DNA of 64,000 nt from Candidatus Polarisedimenticolia bacterium (GTDB lineage: Bacteria > Acidobacteriota > Polarisedimenticolia > Gp22-AA2 > AA152). This document shows positions 3,988 through 56,182 of the stretch, in pieces; the stretch's first letter is position 1, and each line of letters begins with the position of its first letter. A program made the translations under genes and the position numbers. Location: the NCBI GenBank assembly GCA_035764505.1, contig DASTZC010000281.1, positions 326 to 64,325 of the forward strand, read 5' to 3'. Under the pieces are notes generated by a model, which saw nothing but the letters and a program-made list of their open reading frames with translations, was not told the DNA's origin and made no database searches.

Positions 3988-5481
3988 TCAGCCGCCGAAG
4001 ATCCCCTTCAGGATCCCCTTCTTGGATTCGGGGTGCAGCGCCTGGAGAGCGGTCTCGTTGGAGGGATCCCAGCCCAGCGCTTTCTGCAGGAACTCGTCGC
4101 CTCGCGCGGTCTGGCCCAGCTTGCGGTAGAGCAGGCCGAGCAGGGCGTAATTCTCGGCGCAGGTGGGGTTCAGCTCGATGGCCTTGATGAAGTTCTGTTC
4201 CGCTTCCCGGCGCAGCCGCGGATTGCGACTCTGCGTGATGGCCAGGTAGCGGCGGTACTCCTCGCGCGCGGGGTCTTGCTCGACCGCATGCGCGAAGCAC
4301 GACAAGGCCCGGCTCATCTCGCTGCGCTCCAGGTGCGCCTTGCCGTGCAGGAAGTTCTGGCGCGCCAGATCGCTCGAGGAAGTCTCGGGACCTGTCTTGA
4401 CGGCCACGGGCTGCAGGACCTGGTCGTATTCCTGGCGGCTCTCGGGCTTGGACAGCGTTGCGTAGGCCTCGGTGATGGCGGCGAACAGCTTCTCGGCCCG
4501 ATGCTTGGTCTCCTCTTCCGCGAACTTGTCGGGGTGCAGGCGCTTCGCCAGAGAATAATAGGCGTGCCGGATCTCGGATTCGGAGGCTCCGGATTGTATC
4601 CCGAGGATCTGATAGAGATTCTGCCCCGTCAGTGCGGCGAAACGCTCCAGTACCTCCTCCACCGGCCCCGCGGGTCGCGTGGCTTTGGCGGGTGACGGAC
4701 GCTGGGCAGGTCGCACGCGCACCGGAGCATCGGCGGCGACCGGGCGGGTCGGACCGGGCACGCCGGGCTCGCTTTCGGCGCCGTCCAGGCTGAGCAGTCC
4801 CGAGAGGATCAAGGCGCACAGCGCCCGTTCCGTCTCCTCGCTTCCGAGGGGACTCATGAGCGCGATCTCGCGCACCGTCAGGGTTCCATCGGCGCGCGAC
4901 ACGAGGAACCCCTCGGCGGGCGACAGCGGAACCTGATCTAGCGGCAGCGGGGGAGCGGTGTTCAGCCGGACGCGCGAGTCGCCCTCCCCCAGGGCGGACT
5001 TGAGACGATTCAAGTCGGTCGCCTGCCGCGCCAGGTCGAGGATGGCGATCCCGAGGCTGACGCCGGCGTCGTCGGGGTCGGAGAAAGGAAGCTCCCCTTC
5101 CTGGTACTCGTAGGCGGCGTCTTCCCAGCGCGAGGCAGACAGGAGGACTCTCTGGATCATCTCCCGCACCATCGCCTTGTGCTCGTCCGCGCTCAGGAAC
5201 CCGAGGCGCACCAGGGCGGACCCCAGCAGCTCGCTGGACTGCTTGGCGGCGGTGGCGCGGCGCATCTGGTCGGGATTGAAGCGCCCTTTCTGCTTGAGGT
5301 GCTCGCTGAGGCTCTCCGCCATGAGGTTCGAGGCGGCGTAGCGGATCGTCCGTCCCTTGTCGATGAACAGCTGCCTCACGGTCGATCCACGCGAGATCTT
5401 CAGGGCGCCGGAGCGCCCGAGGCGCAGGATCCGCCCGAGCGCCAGGACCAGGCTCTGCTCCGCGAGCTTGCCGCCGGCCAC
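3988..5481 (-). CDS. DUF4388 (PATAN-like) domain protein with central J-domain and C-terminal TPR repeats
   Basis: The N-terminus resembles that of the 7024..8979 protein (LKISRGSTVRQLFIDKG...). The J-domain YQILGI...HPDK is present, and the C-terminal region is TPR-like. Confidence 0.7.
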   Translation of the reverse strand: MAGGKLAEQSLVLALGRILRLGRSGALKISRGSTVRQLFIDKGRTIRYAASNLMAESLSEHLKQKGRFNPDQMRRATAAKQSSELLGSALVRLGFLSADEHKAMVREMIQRVLLSASRWEDAAYEYQEGELPFSDPDDAGVSLGIAILDLARQATDLNRLKSALGEGDSRVRLNTAPPLPLDQVPLSPAEGFLVSRADGTLTVREIALMSPLGSEETERALCALILSGLLSLDGAESEPGVPGPTRPVAADAPVRVRPAQRPSPAKATRPAGPVEEVLERFAALTGQNLYQILGIQSGASESEIRHAYYSLAKRLHPDKFAEEETKHRAEKLFAAITEAYATLSKPESRQEYDQVLQPVAVKTGPETSSSDLARQNFLHGKAHLERSEMSRALSCFAHAVEQDPAREEYRRYLAITQSRNPRLRREAEQNFIKAIELNPTCAENYALLGLLYRKLGQTARGDEFLQKALGWDPSNETALQALHPESKKGILKGIFGG

Positions 5482-24383: not shown

Positions 24384-26413
24384 GATTGAAGCGCGTGAAG
24401 GAAGATCGGCTGCGGCTTTCCACGCCGCTGTCCGGCGTACGCGGCATCGGCGAGACGCGCGCCGCGGCTCTGGCGGAGGCGGGATTGCGCCGCGTCGAGG
24501 ACCTGCTCTTGACGCTGCCGATGCGCTACGAGGATCGCGGGCGCTGCGCTTCCATCGCGTCGCTTTCCTGCGGGGATCGGGCCACCCTCCGGGCGCAGGT
24601 CGAGTGGCTGCGCATCATGGGATCGAGGAAAAGGGGCTTTGCCGTCCTGGAAGCGGAGCTGCGCGATGACACCGGCAGCCTGCTCGCCGCCTGGTACAAC
24701 CAGGTCTACCTGCGCAACCTGCTCAAGCCCGGGACCGAAATCGTCCTCTACGGTGAGGTGGGAAGCTCAGCCTCCCGCCCGGGAAGGCTCCTGCTCAAGA
24801 ACCCGCAATTCGAAGTCCTCGGTGAGGATCCGACCGGCATTCATACCGGGCGAATCGTGCCCATCTACCGCAAGACCGCCGGGCTCTCGACGCGCTCGCT
24901 GCGCTCCCTGATCCATCGCATTCTCGCCGCCCTTCCGCTCCAGCTGCCCGAGACGCTGCCGCCGTTTCTCTCCGCTCGCCCCGACCTGTGCCCGCGCGGG
25001 ACCGCTTTCCGCGAAGCGCATTTCCCCGCGCCCGGGACTTCCCAGGATCAGCTCGAGGAGAAGAAAACAGCGGCCCAGCGCCGCCTCGCCATGGAGGAGC
25101 TCTATCGCCTGCAGCGGAGCTTCGCGCGGGCGCGCCGGCTGCGATCCCGCCGTCGCGCTGTTGCGTGCCCGGCCCCGGCCGATTTGCGGGACCGCCTGCG
25201 GAGAATGTGCGCGTTCCATCTAACGGTGGCCCAGGAGCGCGCCCTGGGAGAAATCCTCGCCGACCTGGAGCGCCCCTTTCCGATGCAGCGGCTTCTCCAG
25301 GGAGACGTCGGATCCGGCAAGACGATCGTGGCGTTGCTCGCCGCCGTCTCCGCCATGGAGGCGGGGCTGCAGGTCGCCTGGATGGTTCCCACCGAGGTCC
25401 TGGCGCAGCAGCAGATGCGCTGCACGCTGGAGCTCCTGCGGGGCACCCGGTTTCGGGCCGCCCTTCTCACGTCGCGCACGCGCGAGTCATGGGAAGCGGG
25501 CTCCGGCCCGGACGCGGATCTGGTCGTGGGGACGCACTCCTTGATCCAGGAAAGCGTCCAGCTCGTTCGACTGGGACTCGTAGTCATCGACGAGCAGCAT
25601 CGCTTCGGCGTCCGACAGCGCGACCGGCTGGAGCGGAAAGGCCGCGATCTGCATCGTCTCCTGATGACCGCGACCCCCATCCCGCGATCTCTGGCGCATG
25701 CCTGCTACGGTGACCTGGACGTCTCGGTGATCGACGAGCTGCCCCCGGGAAGGGTGCCGATACGCACCGTGGTGCGGCGCGACGCCGATCGGGAGCGCAT
25801 CTACCGCTTCATCCGGGAAGAAGTGGCGCGAGGAGGACGCGCTGCATTCGTGCTTCCGGCCGTGCAGGCAGGCAAGGCCCCGGAGAGATCGGCGGTGGCC
25901 GCCCGTGAGAAGCTCGCGGCTTCCATCTTCCCGGATTTCAAGGTGGGTCTGCTGCACGGCGGCCTCGATCCGGCGGCGCGCGAGCAGGCGCTGCGCGAGT
26001 TCGCGGAAGGGGCGGCGCCCGTACTCGTCTCCACCACCGTCGTGGAGGTAGGCGTCGACGTCCCGGAAGCGTCGGTGATCGTCGTGGAGCAGGCGGATCG
26101 CTTCGGCCTGTCGCAGCTGCACCAGATGCGCGGCCGCGTCGGACGGGGCTCTCGTCCGTCGTGGTGCATCCTGATCCCGACCGAGGGAGCATCGCCGGAA
26201 GCTCTGGAGAGGATTCGTATATTACGGGAGGTGAGCGATGGCTTCGAGATCGCAAGAAGAGATCTCGAGATGCGAGGACCCGGCGAGCTGCGCGGATTGC
26301 GACAGTCCGGAGTTCCGGATCTTCGCGTGGCCGATCTCTCCAGAGATTTGGATCTGCTGGAAGCGGCGCGTCTCGCCGTATCGCGCGTTGCAATGACCGA
26401 TAAGGACTCCTGA
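24380..26413 (+). CDS. recG: ATP-dependent DNA helicase RecG
   Basis: It has a wedge domain and DEAD/DEAH helicase motifs: GDVGSGKT, DEQHRFG and a helicase C region with QLHQMRGRVGRG. The GTG start overlaps the upstream stop (GTGA). Confidence 0.9.
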   Translation: MRLKRVKEDRLRLSTPLSGVRGIGETRAAALAEAGLRRVEDLLLTLPMRYEDRGRCASIASLSCGDRATLRAQVEWLRIMGSRKRGFAVLEAELRDDTGSLLAAWYNQVYLRNLLKPGTEIVLYGEVGSSASRPGRLLLKNPQFEVLGEDPTGIHTGRIVPIYRKTAGLSTRSLRSLIHRILAALPLQLPETLPPFLSARPDLCPRGTAFREAHFPAPGTSQDQLEEKKTAAQRRLAMEELYRLQRSFARARRLRSRRRAVACPAPADLRDRLRRMCAFHLTVAQERALGEILADLERPFPMQRLLQGDVGSGKTIVALLAAVSAMEAGLQVAWMVPTEVLAQQQMRCTLELLRGTRFRAALLTSRTRESWEAGSGPDADLVVGTHSLIQESVQLVRLGLVVIDEQHRFGVRQRDRLERKGRDLHRLLMTATPIPRSLAHACYGDLDVSVIDELPPGRVPIRTVVRRDADRERIYRFIREEVARGGRAAFVLPAVQAGKAPERSAVAAREKLAASIFPDFKVGLLHGGLDPAAREQALREFAEGAAPVLVSTTVVEVGVDVPEASVIVVEQADRFGLSQLHQMRGRVGRGSRPSWCILIPTEGASPEALERIRILREVSDGFEIARRDLEMRGPGELRGLRQSGVPDLRVADLSRDLDLLEAARLAVSRVAMTDKDS

Positions 26414-27104
26414 AATCATTTCGTTTACTGCCGGCCGAAAAACTTCGCACTCTGAATTCGTGTTCTTACTCCCTCCGAGTTGTTTCATCTGGTTCATGCT
26501 GGGTCATCGGGCGCAGCGCGCCGAGAATCGCGTAATCCACACGTCGCGCTATGCTTAAGAGCAAGAATGTCCTCTGCTCCGGAATGACCGCTGACGAAAG
26601 TGAAAGCGGTTTTTTCCTTGACAAGAAAGCAGTTACGTCGTACCGTACCTGCCACACGGACGAGCATAAATAAAGCTGGTTCCATAAAATTCCGGTTTCG
26701 GTTTGCCGGAGCAACATAAAGCTAGACGAGGCTAGTGAGCGGGCGGACGAGGCCCGCGTCAGGGGTCCGAGTCGACGCTGCGGCTCGGGTCCGAGGACGG
26801 ACGCGTCGCCCTGGGTGTGCTGTCTGATGAGGTGGAGTCTTGCTGGAGTGAAGAGTGAGCAGACGGGTCCTTTTCCCCGACCCGGCTGTCAACTGTAGGT
26901 CGCTCCACCGGCGTTGTCAATCCTGAAATTGTAATCAAGCTTCTCCCATGCGCCCGGGGGATGAGTGTAGGGTCTTCCATTTCAAAAAGAGAATGGATTC
27001 CCTGATGTCCCACCCCCGTTAGTTTCGGCAGCATGAGGGGTCTTTTCCTACAGGGTTCGATCCGGCGCCGGCTGTAAGCTGAGCGTCGTGCGGGAGGTTC
27101 GACC
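26414..27104 (+). promoter_or_regulatory. Long (~690 nt) low-GC untranslated region preceding the glycan locus. It is a candidate promoter/leader and antitermination region.
   Basis: GC drops to about 50%. Only short, non-conserved ORFs are present. A TTGACA sits at 26618, GGGTCCGAG is directly repeated, and there are TGTCAA repeats. Confidence 0.3.
26587..26615 (+). terminator. Candidate intrinsic terminator (ACCGCT/AGCGGT stem, 12-nt loop, TTTTTT)
   Basis: A 6-bp stem plus T6 lies 175 nt downstream of the recG stop. TTGACA follows immediately afterwards. Confidence 0.3.
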
Positions 27105-27707
27105 ATGGTAAGGCGTCACCGGGCTTTTCTTTCGGCCGCTGCTCTGACTCTTCTACTGGCCCCGATTCTGGTGTTCGCCGACCCACCGCGAACCAAAGTG
27201 AAAGAGTCGGCGCCGCAGCCCCCCGGCGACTATCGCATCGGCGTGGGCGACATCCTCAACATCCAGGTATGGAAGGAGCCCGATCTGACCCGCTCCGTGC
27301 CGGTCAGACCCGACGGCAAGATCTCCTTCCCGCTTCTGGACGACATCCAGGCCGCGGGCCTTTCCCCGATCGAGCTCAAGGCGATTCTGGTGGAGAAGCT
27401 GCGGCAGTTCCTCAGCGAGCCGCGCGTCACGGTCCTCGTCGACGAAGTCAACAGCTACAAGGTCTACGTCATGGGCGAAGTCGTGACCCCGGGCGTCCTC
27501 ACGCTCAAATCCAAGACCAACCTGCTCCAGGTCATATCGCTCTCGGGCGGCTTCACGCCTTATGCCAAGCGCAACGACATCGTGATCCTGCGGAACAACG
27601 GCAAGCGGGACGAGAGGATCTCGGTGAGCTACGACAAGATTCTGGCCGGCAAGAGTCCCGAGCAGAATCTCTTGCTCGAGCCCGGGGATACGGTGGTCGT
27701 GCCATGA
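27105..27707 (+). CDS. Polysaccharide export protein (Wza/EpsA-like; Poly_export + SLBB)
   Basis: It has a signal peptide, and GDYRIGVGDILNIQVW...PVRPDGKISFPLL is typical of the Poly_export domain. Confidence 0.8.
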   Translation: MVRRHRAFLSAAALTLLLAPILVFADPPRTKVKESAPQPPGDYRIGVGDILNIQVWKEPDLTRSVPVRPDGKISFPLLDDIQAAGLSPIELKAILVEKLRQFLSEPRVTVLVDEVNSYKVYVMGEVVTPGVLTLKSKTNLLQVISLSGGFTPYAKRNDIVILRNNGKRDERISVSYDKILAGKSPEQNLLLEPGDTVVVP

Positions 27708-28969
27708 TCGACCACGCCCATCCCACCCCCCACCCTTTGCCGCGCTCCGGCTGGGCGCTGATCGTGGCGCTGGCCTGCGCCTCGGGGACCGGCGCGAGCC
27801 TGGCGCAAACTCCCCCTCCGCAGAAACCTCCCGGAGGGACGAGTCCCGACCTGCCGATCCGCGAAGGATCGAGCGTGAGAAACGAGGATGCCCCGACCCC
27901 GAACCAGTTTCATCTCGACTTCAACGCGGGCGCCCGCTCGAGCTCGAACGTCTTTTTCGATCCAGACGACGGCTCCCCACAGCAGGATTACATCGGCACC
28001 CTGGTCATGGATCTGAGCGCCACGCGCACCTCGCCGCGCACCGCCTGGACGATGGCCTACGTGCCGGTGCTGAACCACTATCAGACCTACGACCAGCTGG
28101 ACTCGACGAGCCATGCGTTCAATTACACCGGCCGGTATCGCCTGGGCGTCAGGGGAGGGCTCAATCTGCAGGAGCATTTCACCCTGAGCAATGATCCGAT
28201 CATTGTTTCGACGCCCCAGGAAGGGGATTCCCCGATCCTGGCCAACAACCAGCGCGTTACCCGCAACCGTGCCGAGATCAACATGGACCGCGAGCTGAGC
28301 CGCAGGACGCGCTTCAACATCGGCGCGACCCACATCCTCAACCGTTACGAGGATGAGAACTTCCAGGACTCGGACGGCTTGCTCGGACTGATAGGTCTGG
28401 ACTTCGCGGTAAGACGCGAGGACACCCTCGGCATGTCGTTGTCGGGGGGACGGCTGCAGTTCGAGGACGACGTTCCCGACGTCACGTCCGAGTCGGCCGC
28501 GCTCAACTGGAGCCATGTCCAAGATCGCTCCCGCGTGGAGCTCTCGGGCGGTGCGACGGTCGCCAAGCAGACGGAGACCGACAGCTTCTTCTCGGGCAGC
28601 GCCGCACTTTACCGTCGGTTCGGGCGCAATGCGGAGTTTGGCGGCGGCTGGAGGCGCAGCCTTACCGCCGACGTCGGGAACAACGGAACCTCCGTGGGGG
28701 ATCGCGTTTTCATGACCATCTCCGGGGATGCCGGCCGGCATCTCACCCTCATGGCCTCCGCCGATTACGGCAGGCGCGAATCGGTGGCGGGGGCCAGCGA
28801 GGTGAACCTGGATCTATGGGGTGGATCGTTCAGGGCGAGGGTCTCGATGGGGCAGCGCTGGGGGCTGGTGACGGGTGCCAATTATCGCCGCCAGGAAACC
28901 GTGCAGCCGGACATTGGAAGTCAGACCGTAAACAACTATTACCTGGGAATCACCTGCAGGGCCTTCTAG
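27704..28969 (+). CDS. Outer-membrane beta-barrel protein (PEP-CTERM-locus-type OMP-like)
   Basis: The start uses an ATGA overlap with wza. It has a signal peptide and amphipathic beta-strand periodicity, and it ends ...GITCRAF with the aromatic terminus typical of OMPs. The longer ORF from 27269 is rejected. Confidence 0.55.
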   Translation: MIDHAHPTPHPLPRSGWALIVALACASGTGASLAQTPPPQKPPGGTSPDLPIREGSSVRNEDAPTPNQFHLDFNAGARSSSNVFFDPDDGSPQQDYIGTLVMDLSATRTSPRTAWTMAYVPVLNHYQTYDQLDSTSHAFNYTGRYRLGVRGGLNLQEHFTLSNDPIIVSTPQEGDSPILANNQRVTRNRAEINMDRELSRRTRFNIGATHILNRYEDENFQDSDGLLGLIGLDFAVRREDTLGMSLSGGRLQFEDDVPDVTSESAALNWSHVQDRSRVELSGGATVAKQTETDSFFSGSAALYRRFGRNAEFGGGWRRSLTADVGNNGTSVGDRVFMTISGDAGRHLTLMASADYGRRESVAGASEVNLDLWGGSFRARVSMGQRWGLVTGANYRRQETVQPDIGSQTVNNYYLGITCRAF

Positions 28970-29011
28970 TCGGACGGAACGGGGATCGCATCCAGAGAGG
29001 GGCAAGGCCAG

Positions 29012-29245
29012 ATGGCGAGAAGAGAGGAAATCCTGACCAGCGCTGAGGCCCGTCGCTACTTGAAGATCGGACGGACCAAGCTATGGCAGCTCACCAAGGA
29101 GCAGGTGATTCCCTGCTACCGGCTGGGGAGCTCGCGCAACGCAACGATCCGGTACAAGCGCTCCGAGCTGCTGAAGTGGCTCGAGAAGCACCGCTTCGTG
29201 CCGACCGGGCCGATGGCGGGGAATGGGCAAGGCGACGGGCATTGA
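29012..29245 (+). CDS. Excisionase/MerR-like helix-turn-helix DNA-binding protein (77 aa)
   Basis: ARRYLKIGRTKLWQLTKEQVIPCYRLG resembles an Xis-family HTH. It lies immediately upstream of the NusG paralog. Confidence 0.55.
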   Translation: MARREEILTSAEARRYLKIGRTKLWQLTKEQVIPCYRLGSSRNATIRYKRSELLKWLEKHRFVPTGPMAGNGQGDGH

Positions 29246-29262
29246 GAGGGACGGGGAAGGGC

Positions 29263-29781
29263 ATGACATCCGGCTGGTATGCGATTCAGACCAAGCCTCG
29301 CAAGGAAGAGGCGGTTCTGGCGTCCCTGGGACGCAACGGGCTGGAAACCTACTGTCCTCGCACGCGGCGGCGGCGCCGCCTGCGGGGCAGGAGGGTCCAG
29401 GAGTCGGTGCCTCTTTTCCCGGGCTACCTGTTCGTCAGGCTGCAGTTTCCGCGCGACTATGCCGGCATCCGCTGGACGCCGGGGCTGGTGCGCATCGTCA
29501 GCCATGCCGGCGCGCCGGCGCGCATCGGCGAGGAGATCGTGGAAGGCATTCGCACCTTGGAGAGGACGGGAGGATTGCGAATCCCGGCGCTTCGCTTGAC
29601 CCCCGGGTCACGCGTCCGCGTGGTACAGGGTCCCTTCACCGGCTTTGAGGGGCGCGTCACGGCCCACCTCAGCGGCGGCGAGCGGATCCGAATCCTGCTC
29701 GAATTGTTCAGAAGGCATGCGGCGCTGGATTGCGACCCCGACTCCCTGCAGCCCATTGCGGCAGCAGTCGGGGCGGCCTAA
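29263..29781 (+). CDS. NusG-family specialised transcription antiterminator (RfaH/UpxY/LoaP-like paralog)
   Basis: An NGN domain (WYAIQTKPRKEE...PLFPGYLFVRL) and a KOW motif (GSRVRVVQGPFTGFEGRV) are present. The protein is 172 aa and sits inside a polysaccharide locus. Confidence 0.75.
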   Translation: MTSGWYAIQTKPRKEEAVLASLGRNGLETYCPRTRRRRRLRGRRVQESVPLFPGYLFVRLQFPRDYAGIRWTPGLVRIVSHAGAPARIGEEIVEGIRTLERTGGLRIPALRLTPGSRVRVVQGPFTGFEGRVTAHLSGGERIRILLELFRRHAALDCDPDSLQPIAAAVGAA

Positions 29782-29807
29782 GTCTTCTGGGCACAAAGCA
29801 TTGCATT

Positions 29808-30470
29808 ATGGCCCATGAAGGGCCTCGATGGCGGAGCTACATCATCATGGGGTCGTCTGAGAACCCGGCTCAGAACGTCCTCCCTTCCGAGACAGGGGTC
29901 TCGAACGGATGGAGAGGAAGAGGACTGACGCCGGTCTGGAAAAGCCTGTTGTCACCGCAGACGGGTCAGCAGGCGCTCGTGATTGGGAACGTCCCGGCGG
30001 ACCTGCTGCGCATGCTGGGGGAAGCCGGCGTCCAGATGCAGCGCGGCGAGACGATGAGCGGTCCGGTCCAGACGGGACGATTCGATTTGATCCTCGAAGA
30101 GCGCCCCGGCTGGAAAGCCAATGCTCTGCGACCCGACCAGGCCTCGTTCCTTTCCGAGCGAGGCCGCTGGGTCGTGGCCCTGAAAGGGTCACCGGCGATC
30201 GGCGTCCGAGGATGGTGGGTCCGGCGGCAGATGCGCCGCCGCGGCCTGGGAAAAGTGGAGTCGTATTACGCCCATTCAGCCCTGTGGTCTCCCGTCGTCC
30301 TGGTCCCCCTGGATCAGCGGGAGCCGTTCGATTACTTCCTGCGCCTGACCATTTCGGGGGGTTCCTTGCGCCGCTGGCTCATTCTTACCGTGTTCCAGGT
30401 CCTGGTCCACCTTCGCATCCACGCCGGTTTCCTGCCGAACTGCATCGTCGTCGCCCGGAGGACGCCATGA
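29808..30470 (+). CDS. Hypothetical protein (possibly the N-terminal partner of the downstream kinase-fold protein)
   Basis: No motif was recognised. It is ATGA-coupled to the next gene. An internal ATG at 29808 avoids overlap with the NusG-like gene. Confidence 0.35.
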   Translation: MAHEGPRWRSYIIMGSSENPAQNVLPSETGVSNGWRGRGLTPVWKSLLSPQTGQQALVIGNVPADLLRMLGEAGVQMQRGETMSGPVQTGRFDLILEERPGWKANALRPDQASFLSERGRWVVALKGSPAIGVRGWWVRRQMRRRGLGKVESYYAHSALWSPVVLVPLDQREPFDYFLRLTISGGSLRRWLILTVFQVLVHLRIHAGFLPNCIVVARRTP

Positions 30471-34736: not shown

Positions 34737-35671
34737 GCCGGATCACCCCTGCCTCGGTCTCGGTCGTCGTCTGCACGCGCAACCGCGCGGGCCTGCTCGA
34801 CGGCTGCCTGGCGCGCCTGGCGATCCTCGACCCGGCGCCGCTGGAGATTCTGGTGGTGGACCAGGGGGACGACGATGCCGCGTCTCAGGTCGTGCTCCGC
34901 CATCGAGACCGCCTGCCCAACCTGCGCCACCTCCCCTCATCGAGTCGCGGCCTGAGCCGCGCGCGGAACCTCGGCATTGCCCAGGCGCACGGTGAGATTC
35001 TCAGCTTCACGGACGATGACTGCCTGGTGCGCAGCGACTGGGTGGCCTCGGTGGCGCGCGCTTTCGACCGCCATCCCGAGATCGCGGCCGTGACCGGCGG
35101 CTCGCTTCCCGACGGGGTGGACGACGCCGATCCGCGCATCCTGGCGGCGGCCACCTGGCATCCGGCGGCGCCCCGCCTCTACCGCAGCTTCGTGGATCCG
35201 GCGGTGGTGGGGGGCGGCTTCAATCTCTCCTTTCGCAAGGAGTGGGCCGAGAGGATCGGGAGGTTCGACGCCGACCTGGGCCCCGGCGCGCGGTTCCGCG
35301 GCGCCGACGACACCGATTTCATCCATCGCATCCTGCATGCCGGAGGGTCAATCCTCTACGACCCCGCCGTCGTGGTAGCCCACCTCCCATGGCGCAACGG
35401 CACCGTCCAGTCGGCGGTGGAATGGGAATATGGCCATGGCATCGCGGTGTGGGCACTGAAGCGGCTGCGGGTGCGCGACTTCTTCCCCGCCCGCGTCGCC
35501 CTGGGCGTGTTCGCTACCCAGGCCCGCCGCGTGGCGGGCGGGATCGTGCGTGGCGACGGCGGTGCCTTGCGCACCGGCTGGTCGTATGTCTCGGGGATGT
35601 GCCGCGGCGCGGCGAGCTGGCTGATGGCTTCTTCTCCCGCGCCCGTCGATCGGGAGGCCGGAAGTGTCTGA
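34733..35671 (+). CDS. GT2 glycosyltransferase
   Basis: VSVVVCTRNR...VVDQGDDD...FTDDDC (DxD) are present. TTGA overlap. Confidence 0.75.
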   Translation: MSRITPASVSVVVCTRNRAGLLDGCLARLAILDPAPLEILVVDQGDDDAASQVVLRHRDRLPNLRHLPSSSRGLSRARNLGIAQAHGEILSFTDDDCLVRSDWVASVARAFDRHPEIAAVTGGSLPDGVDDADPRILAAATWHPAAPRLYRSFVDPAVVGGGFNLSFRKEWAERIGRFDADLGPGARFRGADDTDFIHRILHAGGSILYDPAVVVAHLPWRNGTVQSAVEWEYGHGIAVWALKRLRVRDFFPARVALGVFATQARRVAGGIVRGDGGALRTGWSYVSGMCRGAASWLMASSPAPVDREAGSV

Positions 35672-39181: not shown

Positions 39182-40282
39182 ATGTCGTACGAGTTGGGAG
39201 CGCGGCTCAAGGAGATCCTGCTGCGGACGGCTCCGGCCTTCATGGCGGACCGCTGGCAGGCCCCGCGAGTCCTCACCTTCATGATGACCTACCGCTGCAA
39301 CCTGCGCTGCACCATGTGCTGGCAATGGGGCGAGCAGGGTCTGTTCCACGAGATGCCGCGCGAGCACGAGCTGCAGCAGCTGGATCTCGCCACGCTGCGC
39401 GCGGTGGTGGATGATGTCGCCGCGGAAGGTACGGGAGTCTTCCTGTGGGGCGGCGAGCCCTTCCTGCACCGCGACCTCCTCCCCTTCGTCGAGCACGTCA
39501 AGTCCCTGGGAATGTACTGCAGCATCAACACCAACGGAACCTACCTGCCGCGCGACGCCCGCCGGCTGGTGGATCTGGGGGTGGACGCCATCATGGTGTC
39601 GGTGGACGGCCCGCGCGAGGTGCACGACCGGATCCGCGGCATGGACGGCTCGTTCCAGAAGATTGCCGACGGTTTGAAGGCGGTGCGCGCGGCGCGCAAC
39701 GGCGGCGCCAAGCCGGAGATCGTCGTCAACACCACCGTCTCCCCCGGCAACCAGGATGTTCTCTTGAAGACCTACGAGACCGTGGAGGCCCTGGGCGCAG
39801 ATCGGATGATTCTTTCGCAGCTCTGGTTCACCACCGAGGAGATCGGCCGAGCCAACGAGGCCTACTTCCGCGAGAAATTCAGCGCCCACGCCGGGTCATG
39901 GAAAGGCTTCGTGATGGACGTGTCGAGTCTCGACCCCGATCTCATCGGTTCGCAGATGCGCGAGATGGCGCGCCGTGACAAGTCGCTCCCCCTGAGCTTC
40001 CTCCCGGACCTGCATCCCGGACAGATCGCGGCCTATTACCGTAAGCCATCCGAGGCCTTCGGCAAGACGCGCTGCCTGGTCCCGTGGCTGGAGGCCGAGA
40101 TTCTGCCGAACGGGGACGTTACGCCCTGCTCCGATCGGCCCGATCTGATCATGGGCAACGTCCGCCGGCAGCGCTTCGGTGAAATATGGAACAACGAGCC
40201 CTACCAGACCTTCCGCCGCGCCATGCGGGAGGACGGGCTTTTCCCTTACTGCTCCCGCTGCTGCGGGCTCTGGTCTCATTGA
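39182..40282 (+). CDS. Radical SAM protein with C-terminal SPASM/twitch auxiliary cluster domain
   Basis: CNLRCTMC (Cx3Cx2C) is about 45 residues from the N-terminus, and the C-terminal Cys cluster (CLVPW...C...CSRCCG) is present. The protein is 366 aa. Confidence 0.8.
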   Translation: MSYELGARLKEILLRTAPAFMADRWQAPRVLTFMMTYRCNLRCTMCWQWGEQGLFHEMPREHELQQLDLATLRAVVDDVAAEGTGVFLWGGEPFLHRDLLPFVEHVKSLGMYCSINTNGTYLPRDARRLVDLGVDAIMVSVDGPREVHDRIRGMDGSFQKIADGLKAVRAARNGGAKPEIVVNTTVSPGNQDVLLKTYETVEALGADRMILSQLWFTTEEIGRANEAYFREKFSAHAGSWKGFVMDVSSLDPDLIGSQMREMARRDKSLPLSFLPDLHPGQIAAYYRKPSEAFGKTRCLVPWLEAEILPNGDVTPCSDRPDLIMGNVRRQRFGEIWNNEPYQTFRRAMREDGLFPYCSRCCGLWSH

Positions 40283-47336: not shown

Positions 47337-48818
47337 ATGAAGAGGATATTGCTGCTGAACGGCCCGGACGACCGCGTCGATTCGGTCATGATCCGGAGCG
47401 GCGATCGCTGGCCGCACCGCCTGCCGCGCAAGCTCAGCCGGCAGGTGCCGCACGCCTACCCGTTCTGGTTCGCCCAATGCGGCGCGCTGCTGAAGGCGGA
47501 AGGGCACGAGGTCACCTATGTCGACGCCATCGCAGAGAATCTGGGGATCGACGGCACCGTCGAGCGTTATGCCACCCTGCGCCCCGACCTGGTGATCGTC
47601 GCCACCTCCACGCCGACCATCCACACCGACCTGCTGATGGCGCGGCTGGCCAAGGAGAAGATCGGGGCGTTCACCGTGCTGGTGGACACCCACGTGACCG
47701 TGTTCCACCGCGAGCTGGCCTCCGAGCCCTTCGTCGACGCGGCGGTACGGGGCGAGTTCGAAGTGGCGGTGAGCGAGATCGCCCGGGTCCTGGAGCAGGG
47801 AGCGGACCTCTCCGGCATCCCCGGGGTGACCTGGAAGCGCGCCGGCGAGGTGGTGGTGAACCCCGACCGCCCCCTCCTGAAAGACCTGGACCACCTTCCC
47901 TGGCCGGACCGCAGCCTGGTCCCCGCCGACCAGTACATCGTCGGATTGCGGACGCAGGATCCCTGCTACATGGTAATGGCCAGCCGGGGCTGCCCGTTCC
48001 GCTGCACCTTCTGCCTGTGGGTCCCGGTGATGTTCAACAACAAGGTCCGCTTCCGCGACGTCGAGAAGGTGGTGGACGAGATCGTCGATTTGCAGAAGCG
48101 CTTCGGGGCGCGCGAGGTCTTCTTCCACGACGACACCGTGAACGTCACGGTGCGCCGCGTAGAGGAGATCTGCAACGCCATCCTGCGGCGCGGGGTGCGC
48201 ATTGGCTGGATCGCCAACTTCCGCGCCGACCAGACCACACCCGAGCTTTTCCGGCTGATGAAGCGGGCCGGCTGCACGAAGATCCTCCTGGGGGTCGAGA
48301 GCGGCTCCCAACGCCTCCTGGACGAGACCATCGACAAGGAGATCACTCTGAAGGAGGTGGAGGACACGATCCGCTGGGCCAAGTCGGCGGGTATCCGCGT
48401 GCACTGCACCTACTCGCTCGGCGCTCCGGGAGAGACGCGCGAGACGATGCGCGAGACCCTGGAGTTCATCAAGAAGACCGATCCCGACGACATTCAGGTG
48501 AGCCTGATGACGCCGATTCCCGGCACCCCCTTCTACGAGAAGGTGAAGCACGAGGTAGCCGACTGGCACGACTTCGACGGCGTCTCGGGGCGCTCCTGGT
48601 GCGACCTGCCGACACCCGAGCTGAAGAACGCCATGAACCGGATCTACATCGAGCACTATCTGACGCCGCGGCGCATCCTCAAGCGGGTGACGCGCATGCG
48701 CAACCTCTACGACGTCAAGGAGAACTGGCGCCAGTTCAAGGCGTTCCTGAGCCGCTACGCGGCAACCGGTTTCCCGCGTCCCATCGGCACCTCTTTCGAG
48801 AGCGGAGAGCAGGCGTGA
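47337..48818 (+). CDS. B12-binding domain radical SAM protein (class B)
   Basis: An N-terminal cobalamin-binding Rossmann region is followed by SRGCPFRCTFC and a TIM-barrel rSAM core. The protein is 493 aa. Confidence 0.8.
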   Translation: MKRILLLNGPDDRVDSVMIRSGDRWPHRLPRKLSRQVPHAYPFWFAQCGALLKAEGHEVTYVDAIAENLGIDGTVERYATLRPDLVIVATSTPTIHTDLLMARLAKEKIGAFTVLVDTHVTVFHRELASEPFVDAAVRGEFEVAVSEIARVLEQGADLSGIPGVTWKRAGEVVVNPDRPLLKDLDHLPWPDRSLVPADQYIVGLRTQDPCYMVMASRGCPFRCTFCLWVPVMFNNKVRFRDVEKVVDEIVDLQKRFGAREVFFHDDTVNVTVRRVEEICNAILRRGVRIGWIANFRADQTTPELFRLMKRAGCTKILLGVESGSQRLLDETIDKEITLKEVEDTIRWAKSAGIRVHCTYSLGAPGETRETMRETLEFIKKTDPDDIQVSLMTPIPGTPFYEKVKHEVADWHDFDGVSGRSWCDLPTPELKNAMNRIYIEHYLTPRRILKRVTRMRNLYDVKENWRQFKAFLSRYAATGFPRPIGTSFESGEQA

Positions 48819-50017
48819 GAATCGCGGTGCTGTGCGGCCATTACCCCTATAGCGGGGCCGGGGTCATCGCCTTCGAGGCGGCCCGCGAGCTGGCGCGCGC
48901 CCACGAGGTTGCTTTCATCCATGGCGGCAGCGAGGAGCTCGACCTGCGGGAGGAAGGGCTGCGGCGGATTTCGCTGCCGCTGCCGCCCGAGCCGGACCGC
49001 CGCCCCTGGCATCTGTTCTGGAATCCGGCGATGATCCGCAAGCTGAAGGCGGCGCTGCGCTCCTTCCAGCCCGAGATCCTGCACTTCCACATCGTGCAGA
49101 GGCGCAGCTTCTCGCTGGCCGCCCTCCTCCTGTCGCGCCGCGCTCCGACCGTGTGGACGCTGCACGATCAGTGGCACCTCTGCCTGCGCTCGGTTCCCGA
49201 GCCGCCGTCGTGCGAAGGGATGCGGCGCCTGTGCGTCTTCTGCAGCGCCTGGCCGGGCGCTTCGATCGCGGGCAAGCTGCTCAAGGAGGCGGTCTACGCC
49301 GCCTCGCCCCTCGAAGTGGTGGTGCCGTCGCGCTGGCTCGAGGAGCTCACCCGCTACTCGCTTCTGGGACGCAAGAAGATGCATCTCGTCTACAACGGCA
49401 TCGACCTCGAGCGCTTCCAGCCCGCCTCGGAGGAGGCCGGCGATCGCGCCGTGACCCTGCTGTTCGTCTCCGGCCCGAACGATCCGACCAAGGGGCTCGC
49501 CGAGCTCCTGCAGGCCTTCCAGGCCCTGCGCGCGGCGCATCCGAAGGTAAAGCTGCGCCTGGTCGGGACACTCCCTCCCGGCGCGCCCGCCGAGGGGATC
49601 GAGGCGACCGGCAGCGTGGAGCGCGAGCGCATGCCCGAGGAATACCGGCGCGCCGATCTGTTCGTCCTCCCGACTCTGGCCGACAATACTCCCGTGACGC
49701 TCATGGAGGCGATGGCTTCCGGCCTGCCTTCCGTGGCCACCAGGGTGGGCGGCATCCCCGAGCTCGTGAGGGACGACGTCACGGGCCGTCTGGTGGCTCC
49801 CGGCGACGTCGCCGGTCTGACATCGGCCCTGGATGATCTGGTGCGCGACGGAGCGCAGCGTCGCGCCATGGGGCGTGCGGCCCGCCGCGAAGCGGAGGCC
49901 CGCTTCTCGCGGCGCCGGATGGCAGGGCAGCTGGAAGGAATCTACCGGGGAATGCTGGGTCGGATAGAGATGCGCGCGGCCGGCGCAGAGGCCTCGGCGG
50001 CGGGAGGTGCCTCATGA
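48815..50017 (+). CDS. GT4 (GT-B) glycosyltransferase
   Basis: A Glycos_transf_1 C-terminal domain (E..G.P....EAMA.G.P) is present. GTGA overlap. Confidence 0.75.
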   Translation: MRIAVLCGHYPYSGAGVIAFEAARELARAHEVAFIHGGSEELDLREEGLRRISLPLPPEPDRRPWHLFWNPAMIRKLKAALRSFQPEILHFHIVQRRSFSLAALLLSRRAPTVWTLHDQWHLCLRSVPEPPSCEGMRRLCVFCSAWPGASIAGKLLKEAVYAASPLEVVVPSRWLEELTRYSLLGRKKMHLVYNGIDLERFQPASEEAGDRAVTLLFVSGPNDPTKGLAELLQAFQALRAAHPKVKLRLVGTLPPGAPAEGIEATGSVERERMPEEYRRADLFVLPTLADNTPVTLMEAMASGLPSVATRVGGIPELVRDDVTGRLVAPGDVAGLTSALDDLVRDGAQRRAMGRAARREAEARFSRRRMAGQLEGIYRGMLGRIEMRAAGAEASAAGGAS

Positions 50018-51750
50018 AAGCAGTCATTCTCGCGGGCGGCCAGGACACCCACATGGTGCCGCTCGTCCGCACGGTCCCCAAGGCCCTGCTGCCCGTGGCC
50101 AACCGCCCGATGGTGGAATACCTGCTGCACCTCTTGAAGTCGAACGGGGTGCGCGAGGTCGCCCTGGCGGTAAGCGGCTCGGGAGATGCCTACAGCCATA
50201 CCCTCGGCGACGGAAAGGCCATCGGGATGCAGCTGCACTACTCGCAAGAGGCGCTGCCGCGCGGGACGGCCGGGTGCCTCCTCCCCTTGAAGGACTTCAT
50301 CGACTCGGAGCCCTTCATGGTGATCCACGGCAGCCTCTTCCTGGACGCCGACCTCGGCTCGCTCGGCGCGTTCCACCAGGACAAGGGGGCGGCGGTCACC
50401 ATCGCGGTGCGCCCCTACTCGGAAGGCTCCCGCGACTGGCACCACATGGAGCTCGAGGTAGGCGAGGAGGGGGAGGTCAGCTCCATGCGGGTGCGCAACC
50501 TCTCCCAGAGCGACCGCCTGGCCCGCGTGCCGGTGGGTGTCTACGTCTTCGATCCCGGGGTCCTCGATGTGATCCAGCCGGGAGTCTACTTCGACATCAA
50601 AGAGCAGCTCCTGCCGCGCCTGCGCGAGGAGGGCCGCGCCATCCAGGCGGTGGACCTGGACGGCTACTGCAAGAACGTCCTGGAATTGCGCGACTATCTG
50701 CGGGTCAACCGGGCGGTCCTGCTGGGGCACGTCAACGGCTACAGTTTCGAAGGCGAGATTGCCGATCGGATCTGGGTCGGGCGCGGCAGCCGCGTGTCCA
50801 ACATGTCGCACCTGTTCGGCCCGGTGATGATCGGACGCGATTGCGTCATCGGCTCCCAGACGCAGCTCATCGGGCCGGTGTGCATCGGTGACGGCTGCGT
50901 GGTGGAGGACGGCGCCGTGATCCGCGAGAGCTTGCTGCTCCCCGGGTCCCACGTGGAGCGCGACTCGCGGGTGGACGGCTGCGTCCTGGCGGCCGACACC
51001 GTCGTCTCCCCGGGCCAGAGCCTGCGCGGGGTGGTGGCGATCCCGGAGAGTCTGGACATCGGCGAGGTGGATCTCTCCGACGCCGACTTGGTCATCCAGG
51101 GGCTGGCCTCGTCGGCCGGGCATTACGCCCGCGGCCTCGCGGCGCGCGCCATGTACCGCTTCTTCAAGCGGGCCATGGATCTGGGGGCGGCGCTGGCCGG
51201 TCTCGTCCTGCTGCTGCCGGTGATTCTGGTGGTCGCCGCCGTCGTGAAGGCGACCTCTCCCGGGCCGATCTTCTTCCGCCAGAAGCGCTGCGGCCGCAAC
51301 GGACGCGAGTTCAAGATGGTCAAGTTCCGCACGATGGTGAAGGACGCCGAGGCGATGCAGACCGACCTGCGCCCCAAGAACGAGGTGGACGGTCCCATGT
51401 TCAAGATGGAGAACGATCCCCGCTCGACCAAGCTGGGGAAGCTCCTGCGCCGCTTCAGCATCGACGAGATCCCCCAGCTGTGGAACGTGCTGATGGGAGA
51501 GATGAGCCTGGTGGGCCCGCGCCCCCTGGCCGAGAAGGAGATGCAGTTCTGCCCGGCCTGGCGCGACGCGCGATTGAAGGTGCGGCCGGGGATCACCGGC
51601 CTGTGGCAGGTCAGCGGCCGGAGCAAGACGTCGTTTCACGACTGGATCCGCCTCGACATCGAATACGTGCGGGAGCGGTCCCTGATGCTGGATCTGAGAA
51701 TCCTCTTGCGGACCCTGTTCATCGTGTTCCACACGCGCGGGTCCTTCTGA
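50014..51750 (+). CDS. Fusion protein: an N-terminal sugar-1-phosphate nucleotidyltransferase with LbH domain, joined to a C-terminal polyprenyl-phosphate phosphoglycosyl transferase (Bac_transf/PglC-like initiating enzyme)
   Basis: The N-terminus has the NTP-transferase G-x-G-T-R-L-like motif (MKAVILAGGQDTHMVPL) and hexapeptide repeats. The C-terminus has a reentrant helix plus DEIPQLWNVL...VGPRP, the PGT catalytic signature. Confidence 0.75.
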   Translation: MKAVILAGGQDTHMVPLVRTVPKALLPVANRPMVEYLLHLLKSNGVREVALAVSGSGDAYSHTLGDGKAIGMQLHYSQEALPRGTAGCLLPLKDFIDSEPFMVIHGSLFLDADLGSLGAFHQDKGAAVTIAVRPYSEGSRDWHHMELEVGEEGEVSSMRVRNLSQSDRLARVPVGVYVFDPGVLDVIQPGVYFDIKEQLLPRLREEGRAIQAVDLDGYCKNVLELRDYLRVNRAVLLGHVNGYSFEGEIADRIWVGRGSRVSNMSHLFGPVMIGRDCVIGSQTQLIGPVCIGDGCVVEDGAVIRESLLLPGSHVERDSRVDGCVLAADTVVSPGQSLRGVVAIPESLDIGEVDLSDADLVIQGLASSAGHYARGLAARAMYRFFKRAMDLGAALAGLVLLLPVILVVAAVVKATSPGPIFFRQKRCGRNGREFKMVKFRTMVKDAEAMQTDLRPKNEVDGPMFKMENDPRSTKLGKLLRRFSIDEIPQLWNVLMGEMSLVGPRPLAEKEMQFCPAWRDARLKVRPGITGLWQVSGRSKTSFHDWIRLDIEYVRERSLMLDLRILLRTLFIVFHTRGSF

Positions 51751-56135: not shown

Positions 56136-56182
56136 CCCGCGCCGCCCGGGAATCTCATTCACCGAAAGGAGTGCGCAGTTCC

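Follow-up and report, generated by a model that had tools for sequence, protein, structure and literature searches.

Specialised NusG paralogs switch on long and costly operons, such as those for capsules, toxins, antibiotics and conjugation. To our knowledge, the way in which they are recruited is understood for E. coli RfaH and Bacteroides UpxY only, and partly for LoaP. Here, we analyzed a 64-kb stretch of a contig from a metagenome-assembled genome (MAG) of Candidatus Polarisedimenticolia (Acidobacteriota), with a GC content of 67%; the whole stretch is called the window below. It contains a gene for a NusG paralog inside a long polysaccharide operon, preceded by a gene for a small helix-turn-helix (HTH) protein and followed by a short element that resembles the ops element of E. 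coli. Paralogs in polysaccharide operons are known from Bacteroides (UpxY), from Shewanella (RfaH cluster CL7), from the neighbourhoods of LoaP and from RfaH cluster CL4, which has an HTH neighbour (PMC7593976, PMC7819879, PMC11685472, PMC12691694). A related case is a plasmid-borne RfaH, which has an ops-like site close to its own promoter (PMC11880322). Taken alone, a paralog inside a polysaccharide operon is an ordinary new member of a documented kind. In the literature searched, there was no description of the ops core across Acidobacteriota and many metagenomic lineages, of its placement directly after the paralog gene, or of a variant that lacks T6 and goes with Pro73. We put at about 60% the probability that the paralog is an operon-resident, RfaH-like antiterminator, which would load just after its own gene.

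The features at the centre of the analysis are the following.

29012 to 29245, + strand: gene for a 77-aa HTH_17 protein, a stand-alone winged-helix protein (excisionase/MerR-like; Pfam HTH_17, E 5e-11).
29263 to 29781, + strand: gene for the specialised NusG paralog (NGN + KOW, 172 aa, RfaH/UpxY-like; Pfam, NCBIfam, alignment, AlphaFold and Foldseek).
29828 to 29841, + strand: ops-like element ATGGCGGAGCTACA with the core GGCGGAGC at 29830 to 29837, a candidate loading or pause site.
29847 to 30470, + strand: gene for a 207-aa conserved protein, next after the paralog gene in every NusG-bearing orthologous locus.

The open reading frame (ORF) of the paralog begins with the ATG at 29263, 17 nt past the end of the HTH ORF. 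An earlier note, made from this DNA sequence alone, had described it as a 172-aa NGN + KOW protein within a glycan operon, and both the ORF and the domains were recovered. The NGN domain matched Pfam NusG/NGN with an E-value of 1.5e-18. The KOW match was partial (21.2 bits, cut-off 22.3) and was backed by alignment to the KOW domains of Aquifex and E. coli NusG. The AlphaFold model, built on an alignment of 66 homologues, has an NGN domain with a predicted local distance difference test score (pLDDT) above 90, a disordered linker at residues 105–110, and a C-terminal five-strand beta-barrel with a pLDDT of 65–80. The best Foldseek matches were NusG and RfaH, and the NGN domain was superimposed on RfaH chain 8pen_P with a root-mean-square deviation of 1.6 Å. 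The NCBI records of the two proteins are HEU5182753.1 ('NusG family protein') and HEU5182752.1 ('HTH domain-containing protein'; 100% identical to the HTH protein of the window); the homologue counts of the two genes were 187 and 89, respectively. The family of the paralog already has a JGI name, 'antiterminator RfaH'. Among named families, the paralog scored best with RfaH (TIGR01955; 97.4 bits, cut-off 144.5), followed by UpxY (NF033644; 85.5 bits, cut-off 100), LoaP (NF033641; 52.8 bits, cut-off 125) and housekeeping NusG (TIGR00922; 52.4 bits, cut-off 135.7). Since it stays below the cut-off of every named family, the paralog belongs to an unnamed clade nearest RfaH/UpxY. Of the earlier description as RfaH/UpxY/LoaP-like, the part that names a specialised paralog of the RfaH/UpxY type stands.

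The paralog was then compared residue by residue with E. coli RfaH (PDB 2oug_A, identity verified) and E. coli NusG. The RNA polymerase (RNAP)-binding patch consists of F52, Y55 and F57, equivalent to RfaH F51, Y54 and F56, and is invariant in 66 family members. The loss of such residues would speak against the role proposed in the earlier note, and they are kept. RfaH F56 is an RfaH-specific determinant of high-affinity RNAP binding (PMC7593976). The side chains of RfaH that read ops are K10, H20, R23 and R73 (PMC5995543); at these positions the paralog keeps K11 and R24, and has S21 for H20 and P73 for R73. The T6-pocket residue Q24 is replaced by N, so that three residues of this pocket (H20, Q24 and R73) are changed. 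At the autoinhibition positions, RfaH E48, F130 and I93 are all V. The changed residues, together with the predicted beta-barrel, argue against an RfaH-style autoinhibited transformer, although fold switching is beyond the reach of a structure prediction. Thus, the paralog resembles E. coli RfaH in its NGN + KOW architecture, in the RNAP patch, in the equivalents of K10 and R23, in its association with long polysaccharide operons and in the GGCGG..AGC of the candidate element. It differs from RfaH in the lack of T6 in that element, in the substitutions listed above, in the predicted fold of its C-terminal domain, and in the position of its gene, which is part of the target operon and shortly precedes the candidate site, whereas the gene for RfaH is unlinked.

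The same residues bear on another explanation, namely that the paralog acts as a general NusG in pausing or Rho termination, or as a coupling factor only, and is a brake or tuner on the operon. The predicted NusG-like beta-barrel without a helical autoinhibited state, and the V at both E48 and F130, agree with it. So does the KOW loop, LFR, which is closer to the Rho-contacting IFG of NusG (PMC7593976) than to the LIN of RfaH, and some UpxY proteins enhance pausing at their own ops site (PMC11685472). Against this, the F at RfaH F56 (Leu in NusG) and the K at K10 (Phe in NusG) are hallmarks of specialised paralogs, and the housekeeping NusG model gives 52 bits, far from its cut-off of 136. Moreover, all characterised operon-linked paralogs (RfaH, UpxY, LoaP, TaA) raise distal expression (PMC7819879). 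We consider the brake or tuner role very unlikely.

The loci used for comparison, designated here by L and a number, came mainly from one metagenome scan and from exact-protein look-ups; a scan of a genome collection added two related loci only. The proteins of the window were placed on the fetched loci by tblastn. The common order of genes is RecG or another neighbour, a long leader, the exporter, an outer-membrane protein (OMP), the HTH protein and the paralog where present, the 207-aa protein, an APH-like kinase, the flippase and glycosyltransferases. The locus occurs in three versions.

Version A, OMP–HTH–NusG: window, L003/4, L005/6, L007/8 and L014–L017; paralog identity 58–86%.
Version B, OMP–NusG without HTH: L001, L002, L009, L010, L018 and L019; paralog identity 52–57%.
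Version C, OMP–HTH and then the 207-aa gene, without NusG: L096 and L097; no paralog.

An alignment of the spacer after the paralog gene in versions A and B showed an invariant ATGGCGGAGC. The 11-mer ATGGCGGAGCT has a single copy in the window (29828–29838) and a single copy in every one of the 16 NusG-bearing orthologous loci fetched, at 46–52 nt past the paralog stop codon in all cases. In the version C loci, no copy of the element was found between the HTH gene and the 207-aa gene. In most orthologous loci, the 207-aa gene has ATGGCGGAGCT as its codons 1–4 (MAEL), followed by ~35 hypervariable codons. In the window and in L003, which come from independent assemblies, the 11-mer is out of frame with the 207-aa gene, whose ATG is at 29847. 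In these two loci (window 29828–29860, + strand; L003 2988–3020), the element opens a 10-codon mini-ORF (MAELHHHGVV* in the window) that overlaps the ATG at 29847. A second GGCGGAGC, ~110 nt into the 207-aa gene, was rejected as a signal: it encodes a conserved W-R-S, varies synonymously and is present in some loci only, so that synonymous change is tolerated there and not in the first copy. The candidate element GGCGGAGCTACA (29830–29841), 49 nt past the paralog stop, is an ops variant; compared with E. coli ops GGCGGTAGCGTG, it has no T6.

The element was next sought in a distant set of 77 paralog loci from the metagenome scan, with identities of 28–41% and GC contents of 37–71%. These distant relatives are also found in polysaccharide loci. 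On the coding strand, GGCGG[N]AGC was present within 300 nt downstream of the paralog stop in 23 of 76 loci. The controls gave 1/76 for the opposite strand of the same region, 3/67 for the following 320 nt and 1/77 for the paralog gene itself, and within 320 nt upstream of the paralog gene the motif was found in 7/75 loci. In a permutation test with 168 orders of the eight bases, GGCGGAGC ranked first, with 13 loci against a mean of 0.9 and 5 for the runner-up. In most of these loci, the sites precede the next gene or coincide with its start, and the genes concerned differ from locus to locus without being related. An ungapped alignment of the sites has GGCGG at positions 1–5 and, in most of them, TG at positions 11–12, as in ops. 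In L025, with a GC content of 37%, the 185-nt spacer behind the paralog gene has two copies of GGCGGAGCTATG; the first motif copy of this locus (ATG 5746) likewise opens a 10-codon mini-ORF (MAELCFYNGK*). An exact copy of the E. coli ops 12-mer is present in L069, whose paralog resembles RfaH at K10, R23, Q24, E48 and R73. When a model was built from 29 distant sites only and run on both strands of the window (128 kb) with filters off, the site at 29823–29843 ranked 2nd. Taken together, the placement, the strand bias and the covariation with the protein described below point to a nucleic-acid signal that would be read by the NGN domain.

The covariation concerns residue 73 and the sixth base of the element. 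Nine loci have T or C at element position 6, and the residue at RfaH position 73 is Arg in six of them. In loci with the 8-mer GGCGGAGC, Arg73 was found in 2/30 and Pro73 in 27/30. In the structure of RfaH with ops, R73 forms one wall of the pocket for the flipped T6 (PMC5995543), so the direction of the correlation is structurally sensible. A wider reading is that many uncharacterised non-Proteobacterial NusG paralogs use the ops core of RfaH just after their own gene, with Arg73 reading a flipped pyrimidine at position 6 and Pro73 marking its absence. We offer it tentatively and hold it to be rather doubtful.

The presumed target is an operon of 29 + strand genes at 27105–62005 (34.9 kb), with a 4-nt overlap at 17 of the 28 junctions and a largest gap of ~65 nt. 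The '35-kb coupled array' of the earlier note is therefore real. The products include a polysaccharide exporter, an outer-membrane protein, a flippase, many glycosyltransferases, a deacetylase, a methyltransferase, radical-SAM enzymes, an epimerase, a fused NTP-transferase/initiating sugar transferase and a Wzz/tyrosine-kinase protein. No sigma-70-like promoter match was found within the gene array. Besides the genes listed above, the operon comprises the following.

27105 to 27707, + strand: polysaccharide export protein (Poly_export + SLBB), operon gene 1 (Pfam E 1.9e-25); its nearest NCBIfam model is the PEP-CTERM-type TIGR03027 (157 bits, cut-off 180).
27704 to 28969, + strand: putative outer-membrane protein, 421 aa, with weak similarity to TIGR03016, EpsL (PEP-CTERM-associated); syntenic in all related loci.
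30467 to 62005, + strand: the remaining 24 operon genes, presumed target of the paralog (Pfam matches, gene packing), among them those for the APH-like kinase, flippase, GT2 and GT4 glycosyltransferases, deacetylase, methyltransferase, radical-SAM enzymes, NTP-transferase/Bac_transf fusion, Wzz/tyrosine-kinase protein and epimerase.

The mechanism that we propose for the operon-resident antiterminator is as follows. Transcription would begin at a sigma-70-type promoter at ~26618–26646. The polymerase would cross a leader of ~450 nt, the two export genes, the HTH gene and the paralog gene, so that the four proximal genes would be transcribed without the factor. At 49 nt past the paralog stop, the non-template strand would present GGCGGAGCTACA, and the polymerase would pause at 29830–29841. 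The paralog could then bind the elongation complex, with F52/Y55/F57 on the beta′ clamp helices and the basic patch of K11 and R24 on the exposed DNA. It would stay on the polymerase and, through the 25 genes and 32 kb still ahead, suppress both pausing and termination. More speculatively, the KOW domain may recruit a ribosome at the element, which overlaps the next start codon, as has been proposed for RfaH. With the gene for the factor shortly before the loading site of that factor, distal expression would depend on proximal transcription, as in a feed-forward gate.

The locus can be compared with known systems. As with Bacteroides UpxY, the paralog is encoded by the locus, would be dedicated to one polysaccharide operon and would act on its own transcript. 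The upxY gene is followed by upxZ, and the paralog gene is also followed by a gene for a conserved protein. The opsX non-template hairpins have GCG...AGC stems, that is, the same core as the element of the window (PMC11685472). Unlike upxY, which is the first gene and has its ops in the upstream leader, the paralog gene is fourth in its operon (second in the NusG-only clade) and its candidate site lies downstream. Unlike the UpxY system, no UpxZ homologue was recognised in family-model searches, and the preceding gene encodes a DNA-binding HTH protein that is not like an anti-UpxY protein. By position, the analogue of UpxZ would be the 207-aa protein and not the HTH protein. The 207-aa protein is present in all three locus versions (L001–L019, L096, L097), with the APH-like kinase always next to it. 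It had zero matches in Pfam, NCBIfam, PADLOC and PDB sequences; its N-terminal ~35 residues are hypervariable, and the remainder is well conserved, with the motifs PLWRSLL, FDLVLE, GRWVV and LPNLIVVARR. LoaP of Bacillus velezensis is likewise a NusG paralog encoded beside long biosynthetic operons, which it activates, and polysaccharide loci are among the reported neighbours of LoaP (PMC12691694). A difference is that LoaP recognises a UNCG hairpin in the leader RNA and opposes NusA at intrinsic terminators; in the leader of the window, no conserved hairpin of this kind with covariation was found.

Several points weigh against loading of the paralog at the element and against the antitermination that would follow. 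The whole study is computational, and no step rests on experiment. The element doubles as the MAEL codons in most orthologues, which leaves some room for a coding constraint. The site in the window scored 9.3 bits (E 0.09) with the model from distant sites, and the top match, with a slightly higher score, was inside a glycosyltransferase gene (35551–35574); a modest score is expected for a short GC-rich motif in 67%-GC sequence. The + strand of the window has 15 matches to GGCGG[N]AGC, and 48 of the 77 distant loci have no canonical motif. The window element ends in CA, not in the TG of ops positions 11–12 and of most distant sites, which makes pausing uncertain. The Fisher test of residue 73 against element class (p 6e-4, or 6e-3 with the 13 close orthologues taken as one) ignores phylogeny. 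Terminator-like hairpins of the intrinsic type are not commoner in the operon than in shuffled sequence, Rho-dependent sites being beyond prediction. Because the KOW loop LFR resembles IFG, Rho binding may have been retained. Finally, the operons of L096 and L097 have no paralog, so the embedded factor is either dispensable or supplied elsewhere in the genome.

The main features of the leader upstream of the operon are two.

26618 to 26646, + strand: P1, promoter-like site TTGACA-17 nt-TACCGT in a conserved block; the function is taken from the consensus.
26919 to 26934, + strand: leader box AATCCTGAAATTGTAA (pattern AATCCNNAAANNGTAA), ~300 nt past P1 and 185 nt ahead of gene 1.

The block GTTTTTyyCTTGACAAGnAAnCAnTTAnGnCGTAyCGT is conserved in the otherwise unalignable leaders of L005, L015, L016, L007, L096 and L097, so that P1, its spacer included, is shared by versions A and C. 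It is likely the start of the operon transcript, which would give a 5′ leader of ~450 nt. The block (26617–26646, + strand) also contains the palindromes CTTGACAAG over the −35 hexamer and TACGnCGTA over the spacer and the −10 hexamer. In different lineages they are conserved together with the hexamers, so that a regulator may have its site on top of the promoter. Matches of small ORFs in the leader were found in several frames and on both strands, all on the promoter block; such ORFs were rejected, and the matches reflect conservation of DNA rather than of protein. Version B has its own promoter-like site and a ~550-nt leader before the OMP gene, with a heparinase-like gene inserted upstream, so that its operon is divided differently from that of the window. 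In L009 (5250–8138), L010 (5267–8149), L018 and L019, the exporter gene is followed by this heparinase II/III-like gene, and the promoter-like site, a strong one, reads CCCTTGACACC, 16 nt, TATATT.

The long leader raises the question of whether the paralog is recruited there (26650–27104), as UpxY is, with the downstream GGCGGAGC being simply a conserved coding start. The conserved blocks of the leader (the box at 26919–26934 and a hairpin at 26976–26999), the MAEL N-terminus of the downstream protein in most orthologues, and the 7/75 distant loci with the motif upstream of the paralog gene are consistent with this possibility. The leader box is the sole match in the 64-kb window (0.01 expected by chance). 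Exact matches were found in the leaders of L003, L005/6, L007, L015, L016, L096 and L097, all HTH-bearing, and in 0 of the other 89 loci. It is thus missing from the NusG-only loci of version B and present in NusG-less loci, which argues against a role in the recruitment of the paralog. As it is found only in HTH-bearing loci, it is a better candidate for an HTH operator, and the box AATCCnnAAAnnGTAA may be bound by the HTH protein; shared ancestry of versions A and C explains its distribution equally well. In the leaders of Mor1 and L013, which are HTH-bearing and otherwise unrelated, no common blocks were found.

The earlier note had pointed to the leader (26414–27104) and to the spacer at 28969–29012 as places for an ops or JUMPstart-like element, and none was found in either. 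With one mismatch allowed, ops GGCGGTAGnnTG had 5 matches in the window, as expected by chance, and none was near the start of the locus, the leader or the gene. An Rfam search of 26300–30000 at a permissive threshold gave two chance-level matches and no JUMPstart or epsC/EAR. The conserved part of the spacer at 28969–29012 and of the HTH–NusG spacer consists of Shine-Dalgarno-like purine runs only. A motif search of version A against version B leaders gave nothing above shuffled controls; an AATCYYGAA resemblance between them was weak and was judged to be chance. The leader core has a consensus RNA folding energy of −3.95 kcal/mol, with hairpins that are mostly invariant or unconserved and none that covaries. 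The hairpin TCCATTTC-AAAAAG-AGAATGGA (26976–26999, + strand) is near-invariant in the window, L003, L005, L015 and L016, but this conservation does not extend to L007, L096 and L097; its covariation is too low for an RNA-element call, and since it has no U-tract it is not a terminator. In contrast, the downstream 11-mer is kept even out of frame in the window and L003, and its core is enriched after paralog genes with unrelated downstream genes. For these reasons, recruitment in the leader is unlikely, and loading just after the paralog gene is preferred.

An antisense promoter-like site, TTGACA-17-TACAGT (26920 to 26892, − strand), faces P1 at a distance of ~270 bp. It is conserved as TACATT or TATATT in L003, L005, L015 and L016. 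It was rejected as a general feature: the −35 hexamer is lost in L007, L096 and L097 while the + strand box AATCCNNAAANNGTAA persists, so that the site is lineage-specific. It may form a lineage-specific convergent promoter pair with P1, or may be a by-product of the leader box.

The 77-aa ORF directly before the paralog gene (29012–29245, + strand), described earlier as an excisionase-family HTH protein, was confirmed. It scored 43 bits with Pfam HTH_17 (cut-off 27) and 27.9 bits with TIGR01764 'excisionase family', slightly below the cut-off of 28.8. The AlphaFold topology is beta-alpha-alpha-beta-beta-alpha, and the protein has a winged-helix fold of the Xis/MerR type. Among solved structures, its closest neighbours are CvkR, BldC, the DNA-binding domain of SoxR and the RdfS/Xis excisionases, with weak Foldseek E-values because the domain is small. 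Like Streptomyces BldC and Xis/RdfS, it is a stand-alone MerR/Xis winged helix of ~60–70 residues; the model fits BldC with 2.0–2.2 Å over 53–54 residues, at an identity of only ~20% and a Foldseek E-value of 0.03–0.3. BldC is an ordinary transcription regulator and shows that such proteins can be regulators of this kind. The homologues are 69–96% identical, with an invariant helix LKIGRTKLW..LT, and the invariant residues map to the recognition helix and wing of the DNA-binding fold. In the closest comparisons, no other protein of the locus is as well conserved as the HTH protein: with L005, identities are 79% for the HTH protein, 72% for the APH-like kinase, 69% for the exporter, 69% for the flippase, 66% for the paralog and 33% for the OMP.

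The earlier note had joined the HTH protein and the paralog into a dedicated antitermination module, with a pairing like that of UpxY and UpxZ. In such a two-protein module, the HTH protein would modulate the paralog like UpxZ or load it on the polymerase. Excisionase-fold proteins can act by protein contact; TorI, for example, inhibits the response regulator TorR. Proteobacterial RfaH cluster CL4 has also been reported to adjoin an HTH regulator (PMC7593976). The two genes are adjacent and co-oriented, with a gap of 17–52 nt, in 11 fetched loci and the window, at paralog identities of 58–86%. However, six orthologous loci have the paralog without the HTH gene, and two (L096, L097) have the HTH gene without the paralog; in the 12-kb loci of version C, no NusG-profile match was found even at E 10. 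A profile of the HTH family found no HTH gene inside the fetched flanks of 74 distant paralog loci. Moreover, HTH homologues with 63–70% identity occur in other acidobacterial polysaccharide loci without a NusG paralog, at the end of export modules or beside a CapD-like gene, one of them in the complete genome of strain Mor1. From the three locus versions and these NusG-less loci, we conclude that the HTH gene is gained and lost independently of the paralog. The HTH protein is also more conserved than the paralog (79% against 66%, L005), the opposite of the pattern of the locus-specific UpxY/UpxZ (PMC11685472), and its invariant residues lie in the recognition helix and the wing of a MerR/Xis/BldC-type DNA binder. 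Consequently, neither the module nor the UpxY/UpxZ-like pairing was upheld, and a joint function of the two proteins has a low probability. A fourth natural state of the locus was seen in L002, a MAG of Acidobacteria gp22. Its paralog gene (4291–4594) is internally deleted, so that residues 5–32 and 110–170 are matched and most of the NGN domain is lost, while the ATGGCGGAGCT after the truncated gene is intact; it is likely a recent pseudogene.

The names of the family models invite another explanation, in which the HTH gene was left behind by a mobile element and encodes an excisionase without a role in the locus. Besides the score with TIGR01764 (27.9 bits), the sole PDB sequence match of the HTH profile was the Tn916 excisionase (E 0.087). 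Unlike the Xis/RdfS excisionases, the HTH protein has no recombinase partner at its locus: no integrase-family Pfam match was found among the flanking genes of any fetched locus, and no tRNA gene in the window. The HTH gene has a stable synteny within polysaccharide loci. It keeps its position between the OMP gene and the next gene while the neighbours diverge to ~30–70% identity and its own identity stays at 69–96%, and the GC content of the surrounding 1-kb windows is near that of neighbouring ones. A relic is therefore highly improbable. From its fold and distribution, we infer that the HTH protein is a separate BldC/Xis-like DNA-binding regulator of the export part of such loci, and that it is a neighbour which the paralog does not require. 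In Mor1 (CP011806, L012 658–1281), a fusion of HTH_17 with a response-regulator receiver is encoded beside the HTH-bearing polysaccharide locus, so that a two-component regulator there has this DNA-binding fold as well.

Two further observations concern the distal genes of the operon. A fusion of nucleotidyltransferase, hexapeptide and Bac_transf domains is encoded at 50014–51750 (+ strand). The same fusion (L095 1992–3755) is the first gene after a 33%-identical NusG paralog, and GGCGGAGC lies 65 nt before its start. Three radical-SAM enzymes are encoded at 39182–40282, 47337–48818 and 56171–57673 (+ strand), one with a SPASM and two with a B12-binding domain. Polysaccharide loci do not usually encode such enzymes, which may point to C-methylation or another radical reaction on the sugar or a peptide.

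The three natural versions of the locus show that co-localised regulators should not be called a module without comparative evidence. If the element were non-functional, the locus would be an ordinary further NusG paralog in a polysaccharide operon. If it is a real loading site, the RfaH-type signal in non-template DNA would be far wider than documented, reaching Acidobacteriota and many metagenomic lineages. The factor gene immediately upstream of its own loading site would then be a common architecture, and the correlation between residue 73 and base 6 would be directly testable. Should the tentative reading of Arg73 and Pro73 also be true, the overlap of the element with the next start codon would bring factor loading and ribosome recruitment to one point, with the factor fresh from the same transcript, and the targets of such paralogs would be predictable from sequence alone.

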